DNA of 9,322 nt. It comes from a virus (taxonomy: Duplodnaviria; Heunggongvirae; Uroviricota; Caudoviricetes). Below the pieces are notes generated by a model that saw only the letters and a list, made by a program, of their open reading frames with translations, was not told the DNA's origin and ran no database searches. Below, in pieces: positions 1-9,322 of this stretch (the stretch's first letter is position 1; each line of letters starts with the position of its first letter). Position numbers and translations under genes: made by a program. The stretch lies in the IMG/VR virus record IMGVR_UViG_2574180220_000002. One strand, given 5' to 3'.

Positions 1-861
1 ATGAGATTCAGCACCCCATTACGGTATCCTGGTGGTAAAGGTAAATTAACTAACTATCTATCAAAGATCATTATGATCAATGGTTTAGATGGTTGCGAAT
101 ATGTTGAGCCGTATGCTGGTGGTGCTGGAGTAGCCATTAATTTACTTTTGTCTGGGAAAGCATCACGTATACATTTAAACGATCTTAATAACGCCATTTT
201 TTGTTTTTGGCGGTCAATTCTAGAAGAAACTGATCAGTTTTGCCAATTAATTGAAAAAACCCCTGTGAATATGGATGAATGGTATAAGAATAAAAATATC
301 ATTAGTAATCAATGTGATTATTCCTCATTGGAAGTTGGATTCGCTACGTTTTTCCTTAATCGAACAAATCGGTCAGGAATTTTGTTAGGTGGTGTAATTG
401 GTGGTAAGGAACAAAATGGAAAATGGAAAATAGATGCTCGATTTAATAAGGTTGATTTAGTAAACCGTATTAAGGTAATAGCAGACCGTAAATCTGATAT
501 TTGTATCTATAACCAAGATGCTAAATCATTCTTGCAAAATACTGTAACTGGATTCCCATTAAAAACATTGCTTTATCTTGACCCTCCATATTATGTTAAA
601 GGAAAGGGCTTGTATCAAAACCATTATAGTCATGATGATCATGTCGAAATTGCTAATATTATAAAATCTAATTCAAAGCATCCATGGATTGTATCTTACG
701 ATAATACTGTTGAAATAAACAACATGTACACTGGTCTTAGAAAAATTGAGTACGGTATCAGCTATAGTGCTCAATCTAGGTACCAAGGGCCAGAAGTAAT
801 CTTTTTTTGTGATAGCATTTCTATTCCTGATGATATGGATCCTACAAGAGTCAAATTATAG
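1..861 (+). CDS. DNA adenine (N6) methyltransferase, Dam/D12 family
   Basis: 286-aa ORF with ATG at position 1. Contains N-terminal RYPGGK, EPYAGGAGV (AdoMet-binding motif I-like), FFLNRTNRSG and the catalytic DPPY tetrapeptide (LYLDPPYYV), in the order typical of Dam/DpnM/T4 Dam. Visibly much more AT-rich than the rest of the window (by eye, not computed). The 3' end overlaps the convergent integrase gene by 11 bp. Confidence 0.85.
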   Translation: MRFSTPLRYPGGKGKLTNYLSKIIMINGLDGCEYVEPYAGGAGVAINLLLSGKASRIHLNDLNNAIFCFWRSILEETDQFCQLIEKTPVNMDEWYKNKNIISNQCDYSSLEVGFATFFLNRTNRSGILLGGVIGGKEQNGKWKIDARFNKVDLVNRIKVIADRKSDICIYNQDAKSFLQNTVTGFPLKTLLYLDPPYYVKGKGLYQNHYSHDDHVEIANIIKSNSKHPWIVSYDNTVEINNMYTGLRKIEYGISYSAQSRYQGPEVIFFCDSISIPDDMDPTRVKL

Positions 862-1981
862 CTATTTTACTCCAATCTTTCCCTCGGTCATCATGGTAGC
901 GATCTGTTTGCTGCTGGGTTTTATGGCCCAGTAGCTTTCTAGTATCGATCCCCTGTTCTTTGTACAGACGTTCAGATAAAGACCGTTGTTCATGGAATGT
1001 GGCAGGTGAACCTTTCCCCCAATCAATTCCTGCTAAATCTCTTGCTTTACTGAAATTCATAGTCAAGGTATTGGCTTTAACCTGTGCGCCGCGTTCAGCC
1101 TGTGAAGTAGTACGAAAAAAATGTACAAGGTATGGGCTGACAGCATAGTCACGGCAACGGGCTACTACATCGCGCAAACTCCAGTTAATCGCATTGAGGC
1201 GCAGAGAAAGCGGGATGGCGATTTTGCTCCCGGTTTTTTCCTGGATGACGTGAAGATGATCATCCCAAATATCGCTAAATTTCATACGTGAGATATCACC
1301 TAACCGTTGGCCGGTAACCAGTGCTAACAGCATGGCATTCCCCATATAACGATGACTGGCATCTGCAATATCAAAGATTTTTTGCCACTCTTCAAGATTT
1401 AACCGTTGTCGGGTAATTTTTCTTCTGGGTTGTTTGGTTGCCAGTGCAGGATTATAGCCCGGAGGGACTTCCCCATAGTGTTGTGCCTCCTTGAATACAT
1501 CAATTAGAACGGAGCGGACTACTTGCGCCATCCTCGGTTGCCCGGCAGTGATATACTCGTCAAGCAATTGTGCTATATCCCTTACATCAACTGATGAAAT
1601 TAATTTCATTCCTGCTCGTTCCCTGAGCAAGGATACTGGTTTGGCTTTCTGTTTATAGGTGTTGAGCTTTATATCGCCACTTTCCAGTCTGTCATCCTGG
1701 ATTGCTTGATAGCGATCTAACCAGGTTGACGTTGTGATTGCTTTTCCTTTGCTGGTTGCGATCCTGTCACTGATAGCCAGAATCTGCCGGGTTCTTTGCT
1801 CAGCCAGGCGTGAATTTGCCTCAGTGGCAATAGCAATGGCTTCAGCTTCGTTTGTGCCTAAAGAATGAAACTTCCCGGTCACTGGATGTTTATATCGCCA
1901 ATAGACTTTATTTACTTTTCTGCTATAAAGCGGATACAAGTTCGGGACTGAAACATTATTTTTACGTGGTCTGGCTGCCAT
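851..1981 (-). CDS. int: Tyrosine site-specific integrase, lambda Int family
   Basis: 376-aa ORF starting at ATG (1981..1979). Collinear with lambda Int from the N-terminal arm-binding region to the catalytic C-terminus: TGQRLGDI (Arg), HEQRSLSERLY (His-x-x-Arg), LLGHK...DRYHDD (His and the Tyr nucleophile). Appears intact. Confidence 0.95.
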   Translation of the reverse strand: MAARPRKNNVSVPNLYPLYSRKVNKVYWRYKHPVTGKFHSLGTNEAEAIAIATEANSRLAEQRTRQILAISDRIATSKGKAITTSTWLDRYQAIQDDRLESGDIKLNTYKQKAKPVSLLRERAGMKLISSVDVRDIAQLLDEYITAGQPRMAQVVRSVLIDVFKEAQHYGEVPPGYNPALATKQPRRKITRQRLNLEEWQKIFDIADASHRYMGNAMLLALVTGQRLGDISRMKFSDIWDDHLHVIQEKTGSKIAIPLSLRLNAINWSLRDVVARCRDYAVSPYLVHFFRTTSQAERGAQVKANTLTMNFSKARDLAGIDWGKGSPATFHEQRSLSERLYKEQGIDTRKLLGHKTQQQTDRYHDDRGKDWSKIAII

Positions 1982-2250: not shown

Positions 2251-2799
2251 TTAATTTCGCTGTCTGGATTGTTTATGTATCTTATGCAGCTCTTTAAAGC
2301 GTTCCATAAACATCCCGTAGGCATGGCCCGGTGCCAGTGGAATCACGTTGAACATCTCTGTTGCCGGGATACCTTCCAGCACAGGCCAGAAAGAGCCATC
2401 ATCAAGCCCGAGATCGCGGCGTTCGGTTGCCAGCATGATGAGATCGGCATATTTCACGGGCGTACTCATAACTGGGGGTAACCCGTATTTCTCACGGATT
2501 ACGGCGTCTATTTTTTCTTCCATTTGTTTATAGTCAGGAAGAAGGCGTTTCAGTGGTGCGGGAATGTCCTGGCAATACGCTTCTGTTGCATCATGCATTA
2601 ACGCTTCAAAAGCAAATTCCTGCGGCACCAACTGGCTGCAAAGAACCGCATGTTGGGCGACGCTGTAGAAGTGCGAAAGATGACCGGCAAAGCGACAGAT
2701 ATTTGAAAGGGAAACCGCGATATCGTTAATATCGATGTCGTCTTTATTTATCCTGTCATAATAAAAATGCTTCCCGGAAAAAGTTTTAATAAATGACAT
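2251..2799 (-). CDS. yfdR: HD-domain phosphohydrolase (YfdR/YfbR-like 5'-deoxynucleotidase family)
   Basis: Conserved H...HD metal-binding signature (HLSHFYSVAQHA ... LMHDATEAY). The track ORF begins at GTG 2826; I prefer ATG at 2799 (MSFIKTF), which has GGAG 6 nt upstream, giving about 182 aa. Size and position, downstream of a DUF2303 gene and upstream of xis/int, match YfdR of CPS-53-type prophages (from memory). Confidence 0.8.
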   Translation of the reverse strand: MSFIKTFSGKHFYYDRINKDDIDINDIAVSLSNICRFAGHLSHFYSVAQHAVLCSQLVPQEFAFEALMHDATEAYCQDIPAPLKRLLPDYKQMEEKIDAVIREKYGLPPVMSTPVKYADLIMLATERRDLGLDDGSFWPVLEGIPATEMFNVIPLAPGHAYGMFMERFKELHKIHKQSRQRN

Positions 2800-2890
2800 T
2801 TTGTTCTCCACGTATATGCGCTGCACCGCGCTGAATTTTGGTTAAAGAAAACCCTCGCCATCAGGCGATTATTGAGTTAATTACGTTTCC

Positions 2891-2916
2891 ATAAATGCCC
2901 CCGCAGGGGCATTTGC
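2891..2916 (-). terminator. Stable GC-rich hairpin between the DUF2303 gene and the HD gene; candidate intra-operon intrinsic terminator
   Basis: Perfect 9-bp stem AAATGCCCC (2893-2901) / GGGGCATTT (2906-2914) with 4-nt loop. On the minus strand the hairpin runs into UUUAU. It starts 12 nt after the stop of the upstream gene (2927). Confidence 0.4.
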
Positions 2917-2926
2917 AGTAATGAAA

Positions 2927-3751
2927 TCAGGCGGTGAAAGTACCAATAAGGGTTTCTACTTTGCTGTCTTTGAATTTTTCAACAAGCAGATCACGAAATT
3001 CGTTAGCCATTTCTTCCTGTACTGCTTCCAGCTGAATAATGCGCAGAACCAGTACAGGGCGATCACCAGTGATAATGCTGAGGCGTAATTTAAACGGACG
3101 TTCTTTCAGGCCTTCAAACGGAACGCATTTAAACTCAAATGCTACTGGCATAATGTCTTTGGTTTTCGCTTCGACAGACTCCATCAGAGAGCGTTTGCCG
3201 CTGAAGTCATTGTCTTCAAAATCAGCGGTATGGTTTGCTTCAATCGTGATTTTACGGACCGCCGCAGCCGCTTTTGTTGCCTGAATGGCGTCACCATTAG
3301 CATCAAAGCCCACAAGGTAGTCGGCCCAGTCTTCAATCCATTCTGCCAGTGACTTCTGGGAGTTACGCTCGCCGTTAACAGACAACAGAGCAGAGAACGG
3401 TGCTGTCTTTTTCAGTTTGAGAGTGGCGGTGTTATCTGCGTGACCTGGTTCATCAATAGTACCCAGGTTAAGCACACTGACGGCACGCATATTATCGGCA
3501 TCGATAAAGCAGCGGGTGCCTTCATCTGCAAGATCTTTAGAATAACGGGTAAAGTCATCGATGCTGGCAGTGGAAAGTGCACCACGGAAACGGAAGCGAT
3601 TTAAATTAAATTTTTCCAGATCATGAATGCGGAAATTCTCAGGCAATGCCACAGCATCGGCACCAATCTTACTGATAATTTCATTAACACCCTGAGCAGA
3701 AATAAGGGCATGGATTTGATTAATTGCGGTTGCGTCTAAGTTCTGAGACAT
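2927..3751 (-). CDS. yfdQ: DUF2303-family phage protein (YfdQ-like), function unknown
   Basis: 274-aa ORF with ATG at 3751 and GAGGA 6 nt upstream. Coding-like composition. Length and position (between the 120-aa gene and the HD gene) match YfdQ of CPS-53-type prophages, recalled from memory and not verified. Confidence 0.75.
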
Positions 3752-3816
3752 AATAAGTCCTCACTATATAAAGATATTCAGTGATGAGATAAATAATCAG
3801 TTAATTAAGAACGATA

Positions 3817-4179
3817 TTAATGACCTGCTGCGCGTAGTTTTCCGTCAGGTTCACCGGCAAGAGTCAGTAATTGTCCCTGGTCTTCCTGCAGAATAGTCAG
3901 GCGACCACCGCGATTGACATACATCGGTGTTTCGGTGGTGTCTTCTTCGGAAATTTTCCCGCGGTTAGTCGGGCGAACATATGAGAGTTTGTGTTTGATT
4001 TTCACACGGTTCTCATCAAATGGTTCGATTTCCAGGTTGAGCGAGACCTTACCTTTGGTTTTCGTGTTCATCACACCGGAAGCGACTTCACTGAGAACTG
4101 CGCCGATTTTGGTTTCAAATACGCCGCCGTCCAGCTCCCCGATAAATGCCTGCACATCAGTACTGCGTTCGCTAGCCAT
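3817..4179 (-). CDS. Hypothetical early-left phage protein, about 120 aa (YfdP-like by position and size)
   Basis: The track ORF (3817..4365) begins at TTG, and its first 62 codons are low-complexity (R/C/S/G-rich) and cross a structured non-coding element. ATG at 4179 is preceded by GGGGAG 7 nt upstream and gives MASERSTDVQAF..., 120 aa; ATG at 4197 is an alternative. No recognisable catalytic motif. Confidence 0.6.
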   Translation of the reverse strand: MASERSTDVQAFIGELDGGVFETKIGAVLSEVASGVMNTKTKGKVSLNLEIEPFDENRVKIKHKLSYVRPTNRGKISEEDTTETPMYVNRGGRLTILQEDQGQLLTLAGEPDGKLRAAGH

Positions 4180-4227
4180 TTTGCTGCTCCCCATCATATC
4201 GACCCTGCAAGGTCGGTTGGTTTCTCC

Positions 4228-4327
4228 ACAAAACAGAGAAGAACACCTGCGGTGGCAGCCGCCCGGATGGATTGGGTTATGAGCCCGTCGTCCGGTGATG
4301 CTCTTCTCTGTTTTGTAAAAAGAGCGG
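4228..4327 (-). promoter_or_regulatory. boxA-like motif followed by a long structured hairpin in the leader of the early-left operon (candidate nut/put-type antitermination element or structured 5' UTR)
   Basis: Minus strand reads CGCTCTTTTTACA (4326->4314), resembling boxA (lambda nut CGCTCTTA; rrn TGCTCTTTAACA). It is followed by a perfect 15-bp inverted repeat, ACAAAACAGAGAAGA (4228-4242) / TCTTCTCTGTTTTGT (4302-4316), enclosing 59 nt with nested stems (CCGGA 4263-4267 / TCCGG 4291-4295; GCGG 4249-4252 / CCGC 4259-4262). Lies about 50 nt upstream of the 120-aa gene start. Confidence 0.35.
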
Positions 4328-4860
4328 TACCTGCCGGAAGCAAGTGTACAAACTGGTACCGCCAAAGCAGTGGCTGTTGTGGTGACCGGTGCTGATCTCC
4401 GGCTTGCGGTTATTTCAGACTCTCACGGGCGTTTAATTGCCCCGCCGAACAGCTCTTTTCCGCAATAGCTGCAATGTCTTTCGCGCATCAGTCTGCGCAT
4501 TCACCACAACGCTGAGAGCACTTAGCCAGTTACGGCACCACACTTTGTCGCGGTTCCATAAATGCCCTCATCGTTGCACCCTGGTCTCTTCCCAGGCGTC
4601 AAACCGAATCGCCACGCTGGTTAGGCGTCTTATCAGCATCATCATTGACTTGCACATTCCGGCTACCTAGTTTGTTTGCTCGAGCAAGGAGTGGATTGTC
4701 CCCTTTAACGTCACCAGACCGCTAACGACGCATGTGCCATACGCCGTGTTACAACCAAATTTTGTTAGTACCTTGTTTGTTTGTCTGGAAAGAAAGATAA
4801 AATGAAGTTGCGTATTATGCAAGTGTTTTTGTTGCGAGATATGCAATTTAAAGGGTGATG

Positions 4861-4881
4861 AAAAGCCACCTTTGGGTGGCT
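4861..4881 (-). terminator. Candidate intrinsic terminator downstream of the cI-like gene
   Basis: Stem AGCCACC (4864-4870) / GGTGGCT (4875-4881) with loop TTTG. On the minus strand it is followed by only UUUC, a short U-tract. Lies about 20 bp after the repressor stop (4902-4904). Confidence 0.4.
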
Positions 4882-4901
4882 AATTGATGAGGAGGTAAGG
4901 G

Positions 4902-5594
4902 TTAATTGTGTCGCTTAAGGGTTTGTGACTGGCTGATTAAGACCTTTCCAAAGACCATAAACCGGTGTTCATTTTCGCTGGTAATTCCCCATTCACGGTA
5001 AATCTGGTTATCAGAAATCACCAGTAGTTTGTCAGGTATCATTTGCAGTCGTTTGACATAAATTTTATCATCAAAACCAAATACATAGATACCATCTCCA
5101 TCAAACTGATTGATACTGACATCAACGAAGATGAGATCTCCTGGCTCAATGGTTGGACACATACTGTCCCCACGAACGTTGATAACTTTAATGTGATTGG
5201 CTGGCCGTCCGCCAAACATCGATACAGCATTATCAGTTCTGTATTCAATGGCATGAATCACATCAATGACATCACCGCCCTGGATAAGGCCATTTCCCGC
5301 ACTGGCACTGACATCCAGCATTTCAATACGGAATACATCCTTCACCTGCGCAACATCCTCACTAATACTGTTTTTACATACAGTATTACTTTTGACGTCT
5401 GAGGTAAAGAGATCAGCAATATCAACACCTAAGCTCCTGGCAATATTACTCAGGGCTTGTTCAGTGAATTGTTTCTGCTTACCTGTTTCCAGGCGTGAGA
5501 TATTCGCCGCATCCACTCCTATTGCTTCAGCGAGATCGGCGATTTTCATGTTCTTCGCCTGGCGAAGTTGTCTGACTCGGTTTCCTATGTTCAT
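4902..5594 (-). CDS. cI: CI-type phage repressor (N-terminal XRE HTH, C-terminal S24 LexA-like autopeptidase)
   Basis: 230 aa. HTH: RVRQLRQAKNMKIADLAEAIGVDAANISRLETGK. Candidate Ala-Gly cleavage site in SASAGNG. S24 catalytic Ser in GDSMCP and Lys in YVKRL. Divergent from a cro-like gene across an operator-rich 97-bp region. Confidence 0.9.
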   Translation of the reverse strand: MNIGNRVRQLRQAKNMKIADLAEAIGVDAANISRLETGKQKQFTEQALSNIARSLGVDIADLFTSDVKSNTVCKNSISEDVAQVKDVFRIEMLDVSASAGNGLIQGGDVIDVIHAIEYRTDNAVSMFGGRPANHIKVINVRGDSMCPTIEPGDLIFVDVSINQFDGDGIYVFGFDDKIYVKRLQMIPDKLLVISDNQIYREWGITSENEHRFMVFGKVLISQSQTLKRHN

Positions 5595-5691
5595 GCGTTT
5601 ATTACATTTCTTTATTGCGCGTTAAGCAAATCAACTTGCGCAAAATATTTGCGTGAAATAATATGCTTATCACGCAATATGTGGAGGTAAT
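5595..5691. promoter_or_regulatory. Divergent cI/cro control region with repeated operator half-sites and candidate back-to-back promoters
   Basis: TTGCG/CGCAA half-sites recur as inverted repeats: TTGC-N7-GCAA (5615-5629), CGCAAA-ATA-TTTGCG (5639-5653), TTGCGTGA-N13-TCACGCAA (5649-5677). Candidate rightward promoter: -35 TTGCGC (5636-5641), 17 bp, -10 TAATAT (5659-5664), then GGAGG (5683-5687) and cro ATG at 5692. Candidate leftward promoter on the minus strand: -35 TTGCTT (5629-5624), 17 bp, -10 TGTAAT (5606-5601), 6 nt, then the A of the cI ATG, suggesting a leaderless cI mRNA. Confidence 0.55.
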
Positions 5692-5916
5692 ATGCAATCA
5701 CCATTACGGAATGTGCGTAAGGCGCACGGATTTACTTTGCAGCATGTTGCTGCTGGCGTTCAGGTCAATCCAGCGACGCTGAGTCGTATTGAAAGACTGG
5801 AACAAATTCCATCTATCGATCTTGCAGAACGTCTGGCCAATTTTTTTAAGGATGAAATCAGCGAAATGCAGATTCTTTATCGTATTTCAGGGATGCTCGT
5901 GCCGAACTGGGTATAA
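5692..5916 (+). CDS. cro: Cro-like XRE-family HTH regulator
   Basis: 74-aa ORF with GGAGG SD. HTH: LRNVRKAHGFTLQHVAAGVQVNPATLSRIE. Divergent from the cI-like gene. The C-terminal tail (from about residue 58) overlaps an out-of-frame HTH-coding segment, so the true C-terminus is uncertain. Confidence 0.7.
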   Translation: MQSPLRNVRKAHGFTLQHVAAGVQVNPATLSRIERLEQIPSIDLAERLANFFKDEISEMQILYRISGMLVPNWV

Positions 5917-5954: not shown

Positions 5955-8686
<2,732 letters not shown>

Positions 8687-8687
<1 letters not shown>

Positions 8688-9322
8688 TGGAATTCAGAAT
8701 GAGTGAACAACCACGGACCATAAAAATTTATAATCTGCTGGCCGGAACTAATGAATTTATTGGTGAAGGTGACGCATATATTCCGCCTCATACAGGTCTG
8801 CCAGCAAACAGTACCTATATTGCACCGCCAGATATTCCGGCTGGCTTCGTGGCTGTTTTCAACAGTGATGAGTCATCGTGGCATCTCGTTGAAGATCATC
8901 GGGGTAAAACGGTTTATGACGTGGCTTCCGGCGACGCGTTATTTATTTCTGAACTCGGCTCATTACCGGAAAATGTTACCTGGTTATCGCCGGAAGGGGA
9001 GTTTCAGAAGTGGAACGGCACAGCCTGGGTGAAAGATGCAGAAGCAGAAAAACTGTTCCGGATCCGGGAGGCGGAAGAAACAAAAAACAGCCTGATGCAG
9101 GTAGCCAGTGAGCATATTGCGCCACTTCAGGATGCTGTAGATCTGGAAATCGCAACGGAGGAAGAAACCTCATTGCTGGAAGCCTGGAAAAAGTATCGGG
9201 TGTTGCTGAACCGTGTTGATACATCAACTGCACCTGATATTGAGTGGCCTGCAACCCCTGTTATGGATAATCGTTCCTGTTGTAGCCACAGTCACGTCAT
9301 ATACAAGAACTTGCTGGCCTAA
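8687..9322 (+). CDS. tfa: Tail fibre assembly protein (Tfa family chaperone)
   Basis: 211 aa, starting [54 protein letters not shown]..., the conserved Tfa N-terminus of lambdoid/Rac/e14-type prophages. Translationally coupled to stf through the ATAATGG overlap. The last ~17 residues ([18 protein letters not shown]) look like a non-canonical extension. Confidence 0.88.

Follow-up and report, generated by a model that had tools for sequence, protein, structure and literature searches.

In the stretch of viral DNA analysed here (9,322 nucleotides, referred to below as the window), 97 bp at positions 5595-5691 separate a cI repressor gene on the minus strand (4902-5594) from a cro gene whose ATG lies at 5692 on the plus strand. 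The question that this locus raises is which sequences in and around this region the repressor reads, and how the two divergent genes are transcribed. A preliminary description made from the sequence had proposed a lambda-like divergent operator-promoter region built from TTGCG/CGCAA half-sites, a leaderless cI transcript and an intact lysogeny switch. The gene context, together with operators that overlap both promoters, supports the first of these proposals, and we consider it probable that 5595-5691 is the OR-type control region of an immunity module common to mEp460, SfII, ST64B and several Stx2a phages. It is a switch of a well-known kind and an ordinary example of it, in an arrangement that is biologically expected and holds no surprise.

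The immunity module and its prophage

Over positions 4800-5881 the DNA is 97-98% identical to mEp460 and PhiR63_1, 91% to SfII and 75% to ST64B (BLAST), and the same region is found in 1646 of 5426 complete E. coli genomes (~30%). Alignment of the 97 bp with mEp460 shows two differing positions, neither within an operator arm, and the arms themselves are the same. The immunity regions of mEp460, SfII, ST64B (sb38/sb39), Stx2a_1447/WGPS2 and PhiR63_1 all hold this module, with operator positions common to all of them, and homoimmunity with the mEp460 group is expected from the same repressor and operator region. Literature searches found no published operator descriptions for mEp460, SfII, ST64B or the Stx CI clades, and no published binding, footprint or 5'-end results for any locus of the mEp460/SfII/ST64B type; the operators of this module appear never to have been defined before. 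A search of Rfam gave zero RNA family matches in or near 5595-5691. For comparison we used 23 related loci from 12 genera (Escherichia, Shigella, Salmonella, Klebsiella, Citrobacter, Pantoea, Mixta, Dryocola, Rosenbergiella, Proteus, Serratia and Phaseolibacter), with cI proteins 39-100% identical. The genes and gene-associated signals are as follows.

4902-5594, minus strand: cI repressor gene (230 aa; Pfam HTH_3 at residues 7-62, Peptidase_S24 at residues 104-218)
4859-4883, minus strand: intrinsic terminator of the cI transcript as read from the sequence, AGCCACC-CAAA-GGTGGCT followed by TTTT
5683-5687, plus strand: cro Shine-Dalgarno (SD) sequence GGAGG, 4 nt before the ATG at 5692 (anti-SD duplex -10.6 kcal/mol)
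5692-5881, plus strand: cro remnant, codons 1-63 including HTH_3 (Pfam), in a reading frame that continues to 5916

Read from Met1, the cI protein is 100% identical to that of mEp460 and 97% identical to that of SfII. The mEp460 annotation starts cI at Met16, a start that we reject, as this residue is Ile or Leu in some relatives and its use would remove helix 1 of the helix-turn-helix (HTH) domain. The protein is a repressor of the 434/lambda class, combining HTH_3 with an S24 autopeptidase, and presumably binds as a dimer. A candidate self-cleavage apparatus (Ala99-Gly100, Ser144 in GDSM and Lys181 in VKRL) is invariant in a five-sequence alignment; the residues for RecA-stimulated self-cleavage are thus present and cleavage is predicted. 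The recognition-helix region, NISRLETGKQK, is almost invariant in the 23 loci and shows few, conservative changes only (SISRLETGKQK in L015/L016, NVSRLETGKQK in L019/L020). A PDB sequence search returned no close solved relative able to supply a known operator; the best matches have E values of about 2e-4, and the 434-derived domain 1sq8 is among the closest (E 2e-4). Downstream of cI, the equivalent terminator in SfII is annotated as rho-independent, and most relatives keep a hairpin with an A/T run after it. For the ST64B cI homologue, Owen et al. (2020, PMC7067206) tested 17 conditions, and expression was seen in every one of them (65-520 TPM).

The state of the genes to the right of the control region can be seen directly, and here the proposal of an intact lysogeny switch is not borne out. 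Cro is identical to mEp460 Cro up to residue 63 except for G54D (protein alignment), where a deletion of about 9 kb has joined it to an internal part of a DNA methylase gene; the BLAST map to mEp460 puts the junction at 5878-5881. Coordinates 32486-41499 of mEp460 are absent, and with them the cII-like, Rha, replication and Q genes. The module is therefore a remnant, in which the repressor and operators are intact and the lytic arm is lost. Unlike the phages of the mEp460 group, the prophage that carries it also lacks the lysis, head and most tail genes; it is of E. coli type, has suffered heavy deletion and belongs to the mEp460/SfII/ST64B immunity type.

Half-sites and a probable 15-bp operator

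All the half-sites of the preliminary description, and at least three inverted-repeat arrangements of them, are present in the 97-bp region. TTGCG occurs on the plus strand at 5615, 5636 and 5649, and CGCAA at 5639-5643 and 5673-5677, giving five half-sites. These form an inverted repeat of TTGCGTGA and TCACGCAA at 5649-5656 and 5670-5677 (8-nt arms, 13-nt gap), a second of TTGCGC and GCGCAA at 5615-5620 and 5638-5643, and an 8-bp palindrome, TTGCGCAA, at 5636-5643. At the 5636 position TTGCGC(AA) is near-invariant across loci, the exceptions being TTGCGGAA (L014) and TTGCGCAT (L015/L016).

The unit that is conserved across the family is larger, a 15-mer of the form TTGC-N7-GCAA, whose arms lie at fixed offsets from the cI ATG (+21, +42 and +69) while the spacers vary. 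This fixed-offset conservation supports the earlier reading of TTGC(G) as an operator half-site. The half-sites of the 15-mer are ~11 bp apart and therefore lie on one face of the helix. Exact TTGC-N7-GCAA occurs four times in the window against 0.37 expected, and three of the copies flank cI. A position weight matrix (PWM) trained only on relatives with cI at most 84% identical (training scores 13.7-27.7) places its top four matches among 9302 window positions at 4808, 5663, 4832 and 5615, with scores of 15.7-19.4, within the training range. The motif, its positions and its conservation are direct observations on the sequences; that the repressor binds there we infer from them. On these grounds the operator is very probably the 15-bp element TTGC(G)-N5-(Y)GCAA. 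To simplify the discussion we refer to the sites between cI and cro as A, B and C, and to those beyond cI as OL-a and OL-b.

5615-5629, plus strand: operator A (OR3-like), TTGCGCGTTAAGCAA, exact TTGC-N7-GCAA; PWM 15.7, rank 4 of 9302
5636-5650, plus strand: operator B register (equivalent to OR2 in the family), TTGCGCAAAATATTT; PWM -5.7 here
5663-5677, plus strand: operator C (OR1-like), ATGCTTATCACGCAA, ATGC-N7-GCAA; PWM 18.2, rank 2 of 9302
5713-5727, plus strand: operator-like palindrome within cro codons 8-12, GTGCGTAAGGCGCAC; PWM 7.3, rank 6 of 9302
4808-4822, plus strand: operator OL-a, TTGCGTATTATGCAA, exact motif; PWM 19.4, the highest in the window
4832-4846, plus strand: operator OL-b, TTGCGAGATATGCAA, exact motif; PWM 17.3, rank 3

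The offsets of A and C are kept in nearly all loci, with variable spacers; in L017 the left arm of C is GTGT. The centres of OL-a and OL-b are 24 bp apart, and the pairing is kept in the family at 22-24 bp. The tripartite OR that had been suggested by analogy with lambda is clear at the level of the family, where some 10 distant loci have a +42 middle site with no more than one mismatch in its arms and PWM scores of 7-13, but in the clade to which the window belongs this site is degenerate, in the window itself in the right arm of B. Two other registers for a middle operator, 5629-5643 and 5649-5663, score as poorly here as 5636-5650, and the PWM offers no choice among them. A fifth operator across the cI start (5593-5607, PWM 9.3) was rejected as a family feature, being missing from half of the relatives.

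The site within cro has two arm mismatches here and is exact or has at most one mismatch in most relatives; its position in the family is +119/+120, and its PWM scores there are 10-18. Codon 8 of cro, if Leu, is always TTG, and codon 11, if Ser, is always TCG, and the motif survives amino-acid changes. The same segment, 5713-5727, was separately picked up as a hairpin.

Candidate promoters and their overlap with the operators

5636-5664, plus strand: candidate PR (cro promoter), -35 TTGCGC at 5636-5641, 17-nt spacer, -10 TAATAT at 5659-5664
5601-5629, minus strand: candidate PRM-like promoter, -35 TTGCTT at 5629-5624, 17-nt spacer, -10-like TGTAAT at 5606-5601
4822-4817 and 4799-4794, minus strand: candidate PL, -35 TTGCAT and -10 TATCTT, 17-nt spacer

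We assign PR with good confidence, since 22 of the 23 loci keep its offset and have a canonical -10 (A2/T6); its start would fall near 5671-5672. A purine tract resembling an SD sequence precedes cro in every locus in which a cro start was found, and is degenerate in L011, L015/L016 and L020. The PL hexamers are conserved in relatives together with the OL pair. In a strict sigma-70 consensus scan neither PR nor PRM passes, and the hexamer pairs of both are weak consensus matches.

The claim that the operators overlap -35 and -10 elements of both promoters has held up. Operator A spans the -35 and part of the spacer of PRM, the left arm of B is the -35 of PR, C overlaps the -10 and expected start of PR, and OL-a overlaps the -35 and spacer of PL. 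Repressor bound at C would shut off rightward lytic transcription from PR. At high repressor levels, occupancy of A, over the -35 of the cI promoter, should lead to autorepression, as at lambda OR3, where the operator is likewise placed. The central TTGCGCAA would serve both as the PR -35 and as the strong half of the weak middle operator, which probably needs cooperative help. OL-a and OL-b would control the leftward promoter PL just past the cI terminator. Cro likely binds the same 15-bp sites as cI. Two features are left unexplained by this operator model, namely the invariance of the full 8-bp central palindrome and the clade-specific extra TTGCG at 5649.

Alternative readings of the repeats

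The best palindrome of the preliminary description combines the right half of the central 8-bp palindrome with this extra half-site.

5639-5653, plus strand: CGCAAA-ATA-TTTGCG, 6-bp arms with a 3-bp spacer; PWM -48.6

The palindrome is there, but as an operator geometry it does not stand, for its half-sites, set against the operator consensus, are everted, its PWM score is very low, and its right arm (5649-5653) is confined, apart from the window itself, to mEp460, SfII and the loci of Shigella and Citrobacter, among which the spacer varies. One could still suppose that the repressor binds short TTGCG/CGCAA inverted repeats of this kind (5639-5653, the central palindrome, and TTGCGTGA-N13-TCACGCAA), all of them perfect in the window. 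CGCAA-N5-TTGCG is kept in the E. coli/Shigella/Citrobacter clade, with AATAT, AATAA or TTTAC as the spacer, and the palindrome centred at 5646 stands exactly 24 bp, centre to centre, from both A (5622) and C (5670), a distance equal to the spacing of the OL pair. Yet the TTGC-GCAA spacings in these repeats are 0, 5 and 21 nt, two of them opposite in orientation, and one dimer cannot read them all. Moreover, the right arm is missing in ST64B, Klebsiella, Pantoea, Proteus, Serratia and other distant relatives despite the same recognition helix, and at OL there are no such palindromes but two perfect TTGC-N7-GCAA sites. We regard binding to the short repeats as improbable.

Nor do we give practically any credence to the idea that the half-site cluster arose by chance in AT-rich intergenic DNA. 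It is true that TTGCG is not enriched across the whole window (24 found, 26 expected), but five half-sites in 97 bp are matched in only 2 of 1000 Markov-1 simulated 9.3-kb windows, the arms hold their positions even where cI identity falls to 39%, and the top four matches of the independent PWM fall on the two flanks of cI. In our judgement the comparative data already refute a chance origin. A different concern is that the 15-mers might be read mainly by Cro alone or by a host factor, in which case the region would not be the cI operator set. The recognition helix of Cro is similar (PATLSRIERL against AANISRLETG), and Cro could be the principal reader of some sites, for example the one inside cro. 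The sites, however, flank cI on both sides at PR and PL, the promoters that the repressor must silence, and to our knowledge operators flank cI at PR and PL in every characterised lambdoid phage. Presence of the motif also varies together with that of this cI family across the 12 genera, and reading the sequence by eye we saw no LexA box (CTGT-N8-ACAG) and no CRP-like spacing. A reader other than cI is accordingly very hard to credit, and the 15-bp cI operator is the reading used below.

The candidate cI promoter and a proposed leaderless transcript

The sequence bears out the earlier observation that a -10-like TGTAAT ends 6 nt before the cI ATG (TGTAAT, then AAACGC, then the ATG, whose A is 5594 on the minus strand) and that no SD sequence is present, the best anti-SD duplex being -0.9 kcal/mol. 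Such a geometry, which is that of lambda PRM and compatible with a leaderless mRNA, recurs in 22 of the 23 loci: the distance from hexamer to ATG is exactly 6 nt in each, while the six nucleotides themselves vary. Upstream of cI the anti-SD duplex lies between +0.7 and -5.4 kcal/mol across the family; most cro genes have values of -10 to -13. On the cI strand no promoter-like element other than this PRM-like one keeps its position among the relatives, which it does, again, in 22 of 23 loci. Efficient leaderless initiation requires an AUG start codon, and cI starts with ATG in the window and in every locus that has no leader. In two Rosenbergiella loci a 43-nt insertion follows the same promoter-like element, and we read the cI start there as a GTG that follows a GAGAG tract and lies upstream of the aligned N-terminus by two codons.

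From this pattern we infer, with a moderate preference, that TTGCTT-17-TGTAAT drives cI and that the transcript begins with the A of the cI ATG, which would yield a leaderless mRNA. The lambda cI mRNA from PRM is leaderless (PMC10491246). The supplements of Canals 2019 list no transcription start site near D23580 2098186 (the ST64B cI homologue, STMMW_20241), and a literature text search gave nothing for SL1344_1967 or for leaderless transcripts with ST64B.

The promoter so defined has weak points. Its -35 matches the consensus at only 3 of 6 positions, and the -10-like hexamer, whose variants in the family are TGTAAT, TTAAAT and TTTAAT, has G or T at position 2 in all loci and never A, which is the most conserved base of sigma-70 -10 elements. 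Without activation PRM would be a very weak promoter, and the centre of the middle site (5636-5650) lies at -49 from the proposed start, as against -42 in the activation geometry of lambda OR2. A less likely but serious alternative is that cI is not leaderless and is transcribed from an upstream promoter such as TCCACA-16-TATTAT (5685-5658, minus strand; start near 5651), with translation from an internal AUG without an SD sequence and some other purpose for the conserved TGTAAT. This pair is the only minus-strand match of the strict scan (9 of 12 positions, with A2 and T6), TGTAAT and its variants in the family all lack the position-2 A that sigma-70 needs, and E. coli can translate leadered mRNAs without an SD sequence. 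Against it, neither hexamer is conserved among relatives, and for this reason we rejected the scan match as a family promoter: TATTAT becomes TGTTAT in SfII, ST64B and Klebsiella, and TCCACA overlies variable bases beside the cro SD sequence. No other promoter-like site on the cI strand is common to more than 10 of the 23 loci. The fixed 6-nt distance filled with varying bases fits a constraint between a -10 element and a start site and not an untranslated region, and it is the one leadered lineage that has, on our reading, a GTG behind a purine tract. These observations favour the leaderless transcript from PRM.

Comparison with known switches

The resemblance to the lambda OR/PRM-PR region is extensive. 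Both have divergent cI (HTH plus S24 autopeptidase) and cro genes, dyad operators over both promoters, and a second cluster, OL, that controls PL beyond cI. In lambda PRM (TAGATT-TAACGT-ATG), too, six nucleotides separate the -10-like hexamer from the cI ATG, and an SD sequence is lacking. The differences lie in the operators, which are 15 bp here and 17 bp and of unrelated sequence in lambda; in OL, with two sites here and three in lambda; in the middle OR site, weak or degenerate here; in the cI -10 without A at position 2; in the extra operator-like site within cro; and in a repressor that has no close solved relative.

Phage 434 offers a second comparison, with its 14-bp ACAA-N6-TTGT operators. 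It likewise has a short XRE-type HTH domain, conserved 4-bp outer arms around a variable, uncontacted centre, and half-sites about one helical turn apart, whereas the arm sequence and spacer (N7 here, N6 in 434) differ and the sequence similarity is marginal. Membership of the 434 immunity group was excluded. The operator region of the lambdoid Stx phage 933W (Tyler, Mills and Friedman 2004, cited in PMC8951638) reportedly has three OR sites and only two OL sites, and in this respect resembles the present module, while its repressor and operator sequences are unrelated.

It is tempting to ask whether the mEp460/SfII/ST64B family is wired unlike lambda, with two strong OR sites, an intragenic cro operator and a noncanonical cI -10, but we consider this rather doubtful. 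In such a scheme the degenerate centre of OR, on the invariant 8-bp palindrome, might serve two overlapping weak registers, of which 5629-5643 would be centred at -42 from the cI start like lambda OR2 and 5636-5650 at -49, and the extra operator within the first 12 cro codons would be maintained by codon choice. If this were true, the leaderless maintenance promoter would be unable to work without an activator or DNA looping, and the intragenic site would act as a roadblock or in looping, instead of the classic OR1-OR2-OR3 logic.

Occurrence and use of the module

Whichever logic applies, the module is common: roughly 30% of the complete E. coli genomes carry it, and so do the serotype-converting Shigella phage SfII, Salmonella ST64B and some Stx2a phages. 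The 15-bp consensus TTGCG-N5-YGCAA, with the OR, OL and intragenic positions, provides targets for studies of immunity and induction, including Stx2a production, and should help in predicting homoimmunity between prophage remnants and incoming phages. The family may also be used in testing how general leaderless repressor mRNAs are. As for the remnant itself, its repressor is intact and the same as that of a live phage, mEp460, which forms plaques, and the remnant probably still provides superinfection immunity and silences the remaining early-left genes.

Probable operators of the cI-cro region

The immunity module is of the lambdoid cI/Cro switch class and falls in the mEp460/SfII/ST64B immunity group. 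Sequence identity over 4800-5881 is 97-98% with phages mEp460 and PhiR63_1, ~96.5% with the Stx2a phages 1447 and WGPS2, 91% with SfII of Shigella, 75% with ST64B of Salmonella (sb38/sb39) and ~70% with Klebsiella phages. Of 5426 complete E. coli genomes, 1646 carry this region; the repressor read from Met1 is 100% identical to mEp460 cI. The searchable literature places this CI among Stx-phage clades, leaving its operators undefined, and we found there no other description of operators for this CI group. It is an ordinary lambdoid control region, but one that is useful to have defined.

To the intergenic alignment of five phages we added 19 further loci, which the cI alignment picked out of species-representative genomes (Shigella, Citrobacter, Pseudescherichia, Pantoea, Mixta, Dryocola, Rosenbergiella, Proteus, Serratia and Phaseolibacter); their cI shares 39-97% identity with that of the window. 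The recognition-helix region NISRLETGKQK is near-invariant in these loci, with conservative changes in a few, and we would therefore expect one DNA specificity for the whole family. Conservation falls on the two arms of a 15-mer, TTGC-N7-GCAA, whose spacers vary and whose offsets from the cI ATG are fixed. The TTGCG/CGCAA half-sites proposed in the preliminary description hold up as operator half-sites. The sites are:

5615-5629, offset +21: site A, TTGCGCGTTAAGCAA; exact in nearly all loci
5636-5650, offset +42: register of site B, TTGCGCAAAATATTT; weak
5663-5677, offset +69: site C, ATGCTTATCACGCAA; ATGC-N7-GCAA in nearly all loci

Exact TTGC-N7-GCAA occurs four times in the window against 0.37 expected. 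Two of these copies (4808-4822 and 4832-4846, centres 24 bp apart) lie beyond the other end of cI, just past its terminator (4859-4883), and an OL-side operator pair, 22-24 bp apart, is kept in most relatives. A symmetrised PWM built from 55 sites, only from relatives with cI at most 84% identical to the window's, places 4808 (19.4), 5663 (18.2), 4832 (17.3) and 5615 (15.7) highest among 9302 window positions, all inside the training range of 13.7-27.7; ranks 5 and 6, at 5593 and 5713, are in the immunity region too. The half-sites of the 15-mer are ~11 bp apart, about one helical turn, a spacing that would suit a dimeric helix-turn-helix (HTH) repressor of the 434/lambda class. A PDB sequence search with the repressor gave marginal matches only, to ClgR and a 434-derived domain, and to UmuD' for the C-terminal domain.

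The promoter and translation elements are:

5636-5641 and 5659-5664, plus strand: candidate PR, TTGCGC, 17-nt spacer, TAATAT; 22 of 23 loci have it at this offset, the -10 being canonical
5683-5687, plus strand: cro SD, GGAGG; strong
4822-4817 and 4799-4794, minus strand: candidate PL, TTGCAT, 17-nt spacer, TATCTT; the operator at 4808-4822 (OL-a) lies over the -35
ending 6 nt before the cI ATG, minus strand: PRM-like candidate, TTGCnn-17-TGTAAT; 22 of 23 loci

Site C overlaps the -10 of PR and the inferred start, and so should behave like OR1. On the cI strand the PRM-like element is the sole promoter-like element at a conserved position, and site A lies over its -35 (compare OR3). The analogy with lambda OR that had been drawn is a sound one, and the region is predicted to work like lambda OR/OL. 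It differs from lambda in the length and sequence of its operators, in having two OL sites rather than three, in a middle OR site that is weak and at another distance from the cI start, in the non-canonical -10 of the cI promoter, and in an operator-like site within cro.

The middle of the region

The sequence features listed in the preliminary description are all present. TTGCG starts at 5615, 5636 and 5649, and CGCAA occupies 5639-5643 and 5673-5677; the palindrome CGCAAA-ATA-TTTGCG spans 5639-5653; there is an 8-bp palindrome, TTGCGCAA, at 5636-5643, an inverted repeat, TTGCGTGA/TCACGCAA, with 8-nt arms at 5649-5656 and 5670-5677, and on the minus strand the order TGTAAT (5606-5601), AAACGC, ATG. 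TTGCG is not enriched in the window as a whole (24 found, 26 expected). In the 97-bp gap between cI and cro, however, TTGCG/CGCAA occurs five times, an unusual local density that only 2 of 1000 simulated 9.3-kb windows (Markov-1) attain.

The operator geometry put forward earlier, a palindrome with 6-bp arms and a 3-bp spacer (the one at 5639-5653), does not match the conserved unit. This palindrome consists of the right half of TTGCGCAA, all eight bases of which are near-invariant, and an additional TTGCG at 5649-5653 belonging to the window's clade. Compared with the operator, its half-sites are everted (PWM -48.6), and its right arm is absent in ST64B, Klebsiella and all more distant relatives; inside the clade the arm is retained and the spacer changes. 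From its centre, 5646, it is exactly 24 bp to the centre of A and 24 bp to that of C.

In ~10 loci of several lineages the +42 register mismatches the arms at no more than one position and scores 7-13 with the PWM, and we therefore propose a third, weaker operator at the level of the family. In the window its right arm is ATTT (ATTT, AATT or ACTT in close relatives) and its score is -5.7; the tripartite OR suggested for this DNA is clear only at that family level. An alternative register, 5629-5643, centred like lambda OR2 at -42 from the cI start, does no better: it scores -3.1 and is positive in six relatives only.

The start of cI

We lean towards a leaderless cI mRNA, which the spacing of promoter and start codon makes plausible. 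The PRM-like -10 hexamer, 6 nt and the ATG reproduce the geometry of lambda PRM, taking the lambda PRM hexamers for comparison; this 6-nt spacing is invariant in the family, although the six bases vary. The lambda cI mRNA is leaderless (PMC10491246). The start codon is ATG in all leader-free loci, and the lack of an SD before cI is borne out by an anti-SD duplex of -0.9 kcal/mol in the window (+0.7 to -5.4 in the family; -10.6 for cro). Against a leaderless cI are the -10-like hexamer (TGTAAT, TTAAAT or TTTAAT), whose second base is never A, and the PRM-like -35, with only 3 of 6 matches. A strict promoter scan favours instead the minus-strand element 5685-5658, which is non-conserved.

The two Rosenbergiella loci (L015 and L016) have 43 nt inserted between the promoter-like element TTGCAT-17-TTTAAT and the cI N-terminus (cI match at 1501) and retain all three OR operators. 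On our reading cI would start there at a GTG behind a GAGAG tract, and these loci look like a natural leadered variant of the same switch.

In GenBank the mEp460 repressor (mEp460_038; L001, the mEp460 locus, 1604-2251) is annotated from Met16, giving 215 aa; for SfII and ST64B the annotated start is Met1. Some relatives have Ile or Leu in place of Met16, and a start at this residue would lose HTH helix 1. Given the poor conservation of Met16 in the family, the mEp460 record probably misplaces the start, and a start codon without an SD would explain the annotators' choice. The Rosenbergiella loci, these points on Met16 and the expression of the ST64B cI homologue in all 17 conditions tested also count in favour of a leaderless cI.

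A decayed prophage

The window is a decayed lambdoid prophage, with these genes:

851-1981, minus strand: integrase, by ORF order
after the integrase in ORF order: excisionase-like ORF
early-left, between the excisionase-like ORF and the repressor gene: YfdR- and YfdQ-like genes
4902-5594, minus strand: repressor gene cI, 230 aa; Pfam HTH_3 (residues 7-62) and Peptidase_S24 (104-218)
from 5692, divergent from the repressor gene: cro-like gene; Pfam HTH_3
3' of the cro-like gene: methylase fragment, tail-fibre genes next, by ORF order

A map on the complete mEp460 genome shows window 2290-5881 to be colinear with 28892-32485, followed by two deletion joints. At 5878-5881, cro codon 63 runs into the interior of a DNA methylase gene (mEp460 32485 to 41500); at ~6539-6541, the holin start runs into the interior of the host-specificity gene (42163 to 16934). 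Adjoining BLAST segments share 3-4 bp at both joints. The prophage has thus lost the cro 3' end, the cII-like, Rha, replication and Q genes, the lysis and head genes and most of the tail genes. Cro equals mEp460 Cro up to residue 63 except for G54D and is unrelated beyond, which, together with the loss of the cII-like, replication and Q genes, contradicts the intact lysogeny switch previously proposed. The joint at 5878-5881 is in none of the collection's complete E. coli genomes.

Rfam gives a full-length IS009 match inside the tail-fibre assembly gene (9030-9228, plus strand; 229.5 bits, E 4.5e-57). A sub-threshold match to the sRNA STnc100 (2756-2935, minus strand; 22.7 bits against a gathering score of 47, E 0.12), which takes in the beginning of the YfdR-like gene and the space between it and the YfdQ-like gene, is probably due to chance.

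Additional operator-like sites and unusual loci

An operator-like palindrome, GTGCGTAAGGCGCAC, occupies cro codons 8-12 (5713-5727), ~48 nt past the inferred PR start. In relatives it is TTGC-N7-GCAA, exact or with one mismatch; Leu codon 8 is always TTG and Ser codon 11 always TCG, and the motif outlasts amino-acid changes (H to Q, RKS to RIK or RLE). This codon choice and persistence point to a constraint at the DNA level, and the site may be a fourth operator that would serve as a roadblock or for looping. A terminator scan also reported a hairpin at this position.

At 5593-5607 there is a weak operator-like 15-mer, ATGCGTTTATTACAT (PWM 9.3, the window's fifth best), lying over both the cI start codon and the -10-like TGTAAT. 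Its score is positive in no more than about half of the relatives and passes 8 only within the window's clade.

The two Dryocola loci (L014 and L017) have more full operators (e.g. TTGCTCTTAACGCAA) at ~+90 and ~+140 from the cI ATG, downstream of site C, with no cro ORF found at the usual position and a single OL-side operator near the cI stop; the switch module appears to be rearranged there. A 1407-bp contig labelled Actinomadura rugatobispora (L022) carries an enterobacterial-type cI/cro region with a layout nearly identical to that of the Klebsiella phage locus and, as a 1.4-kb contig of an actinomycete assembly, looks like contamination.
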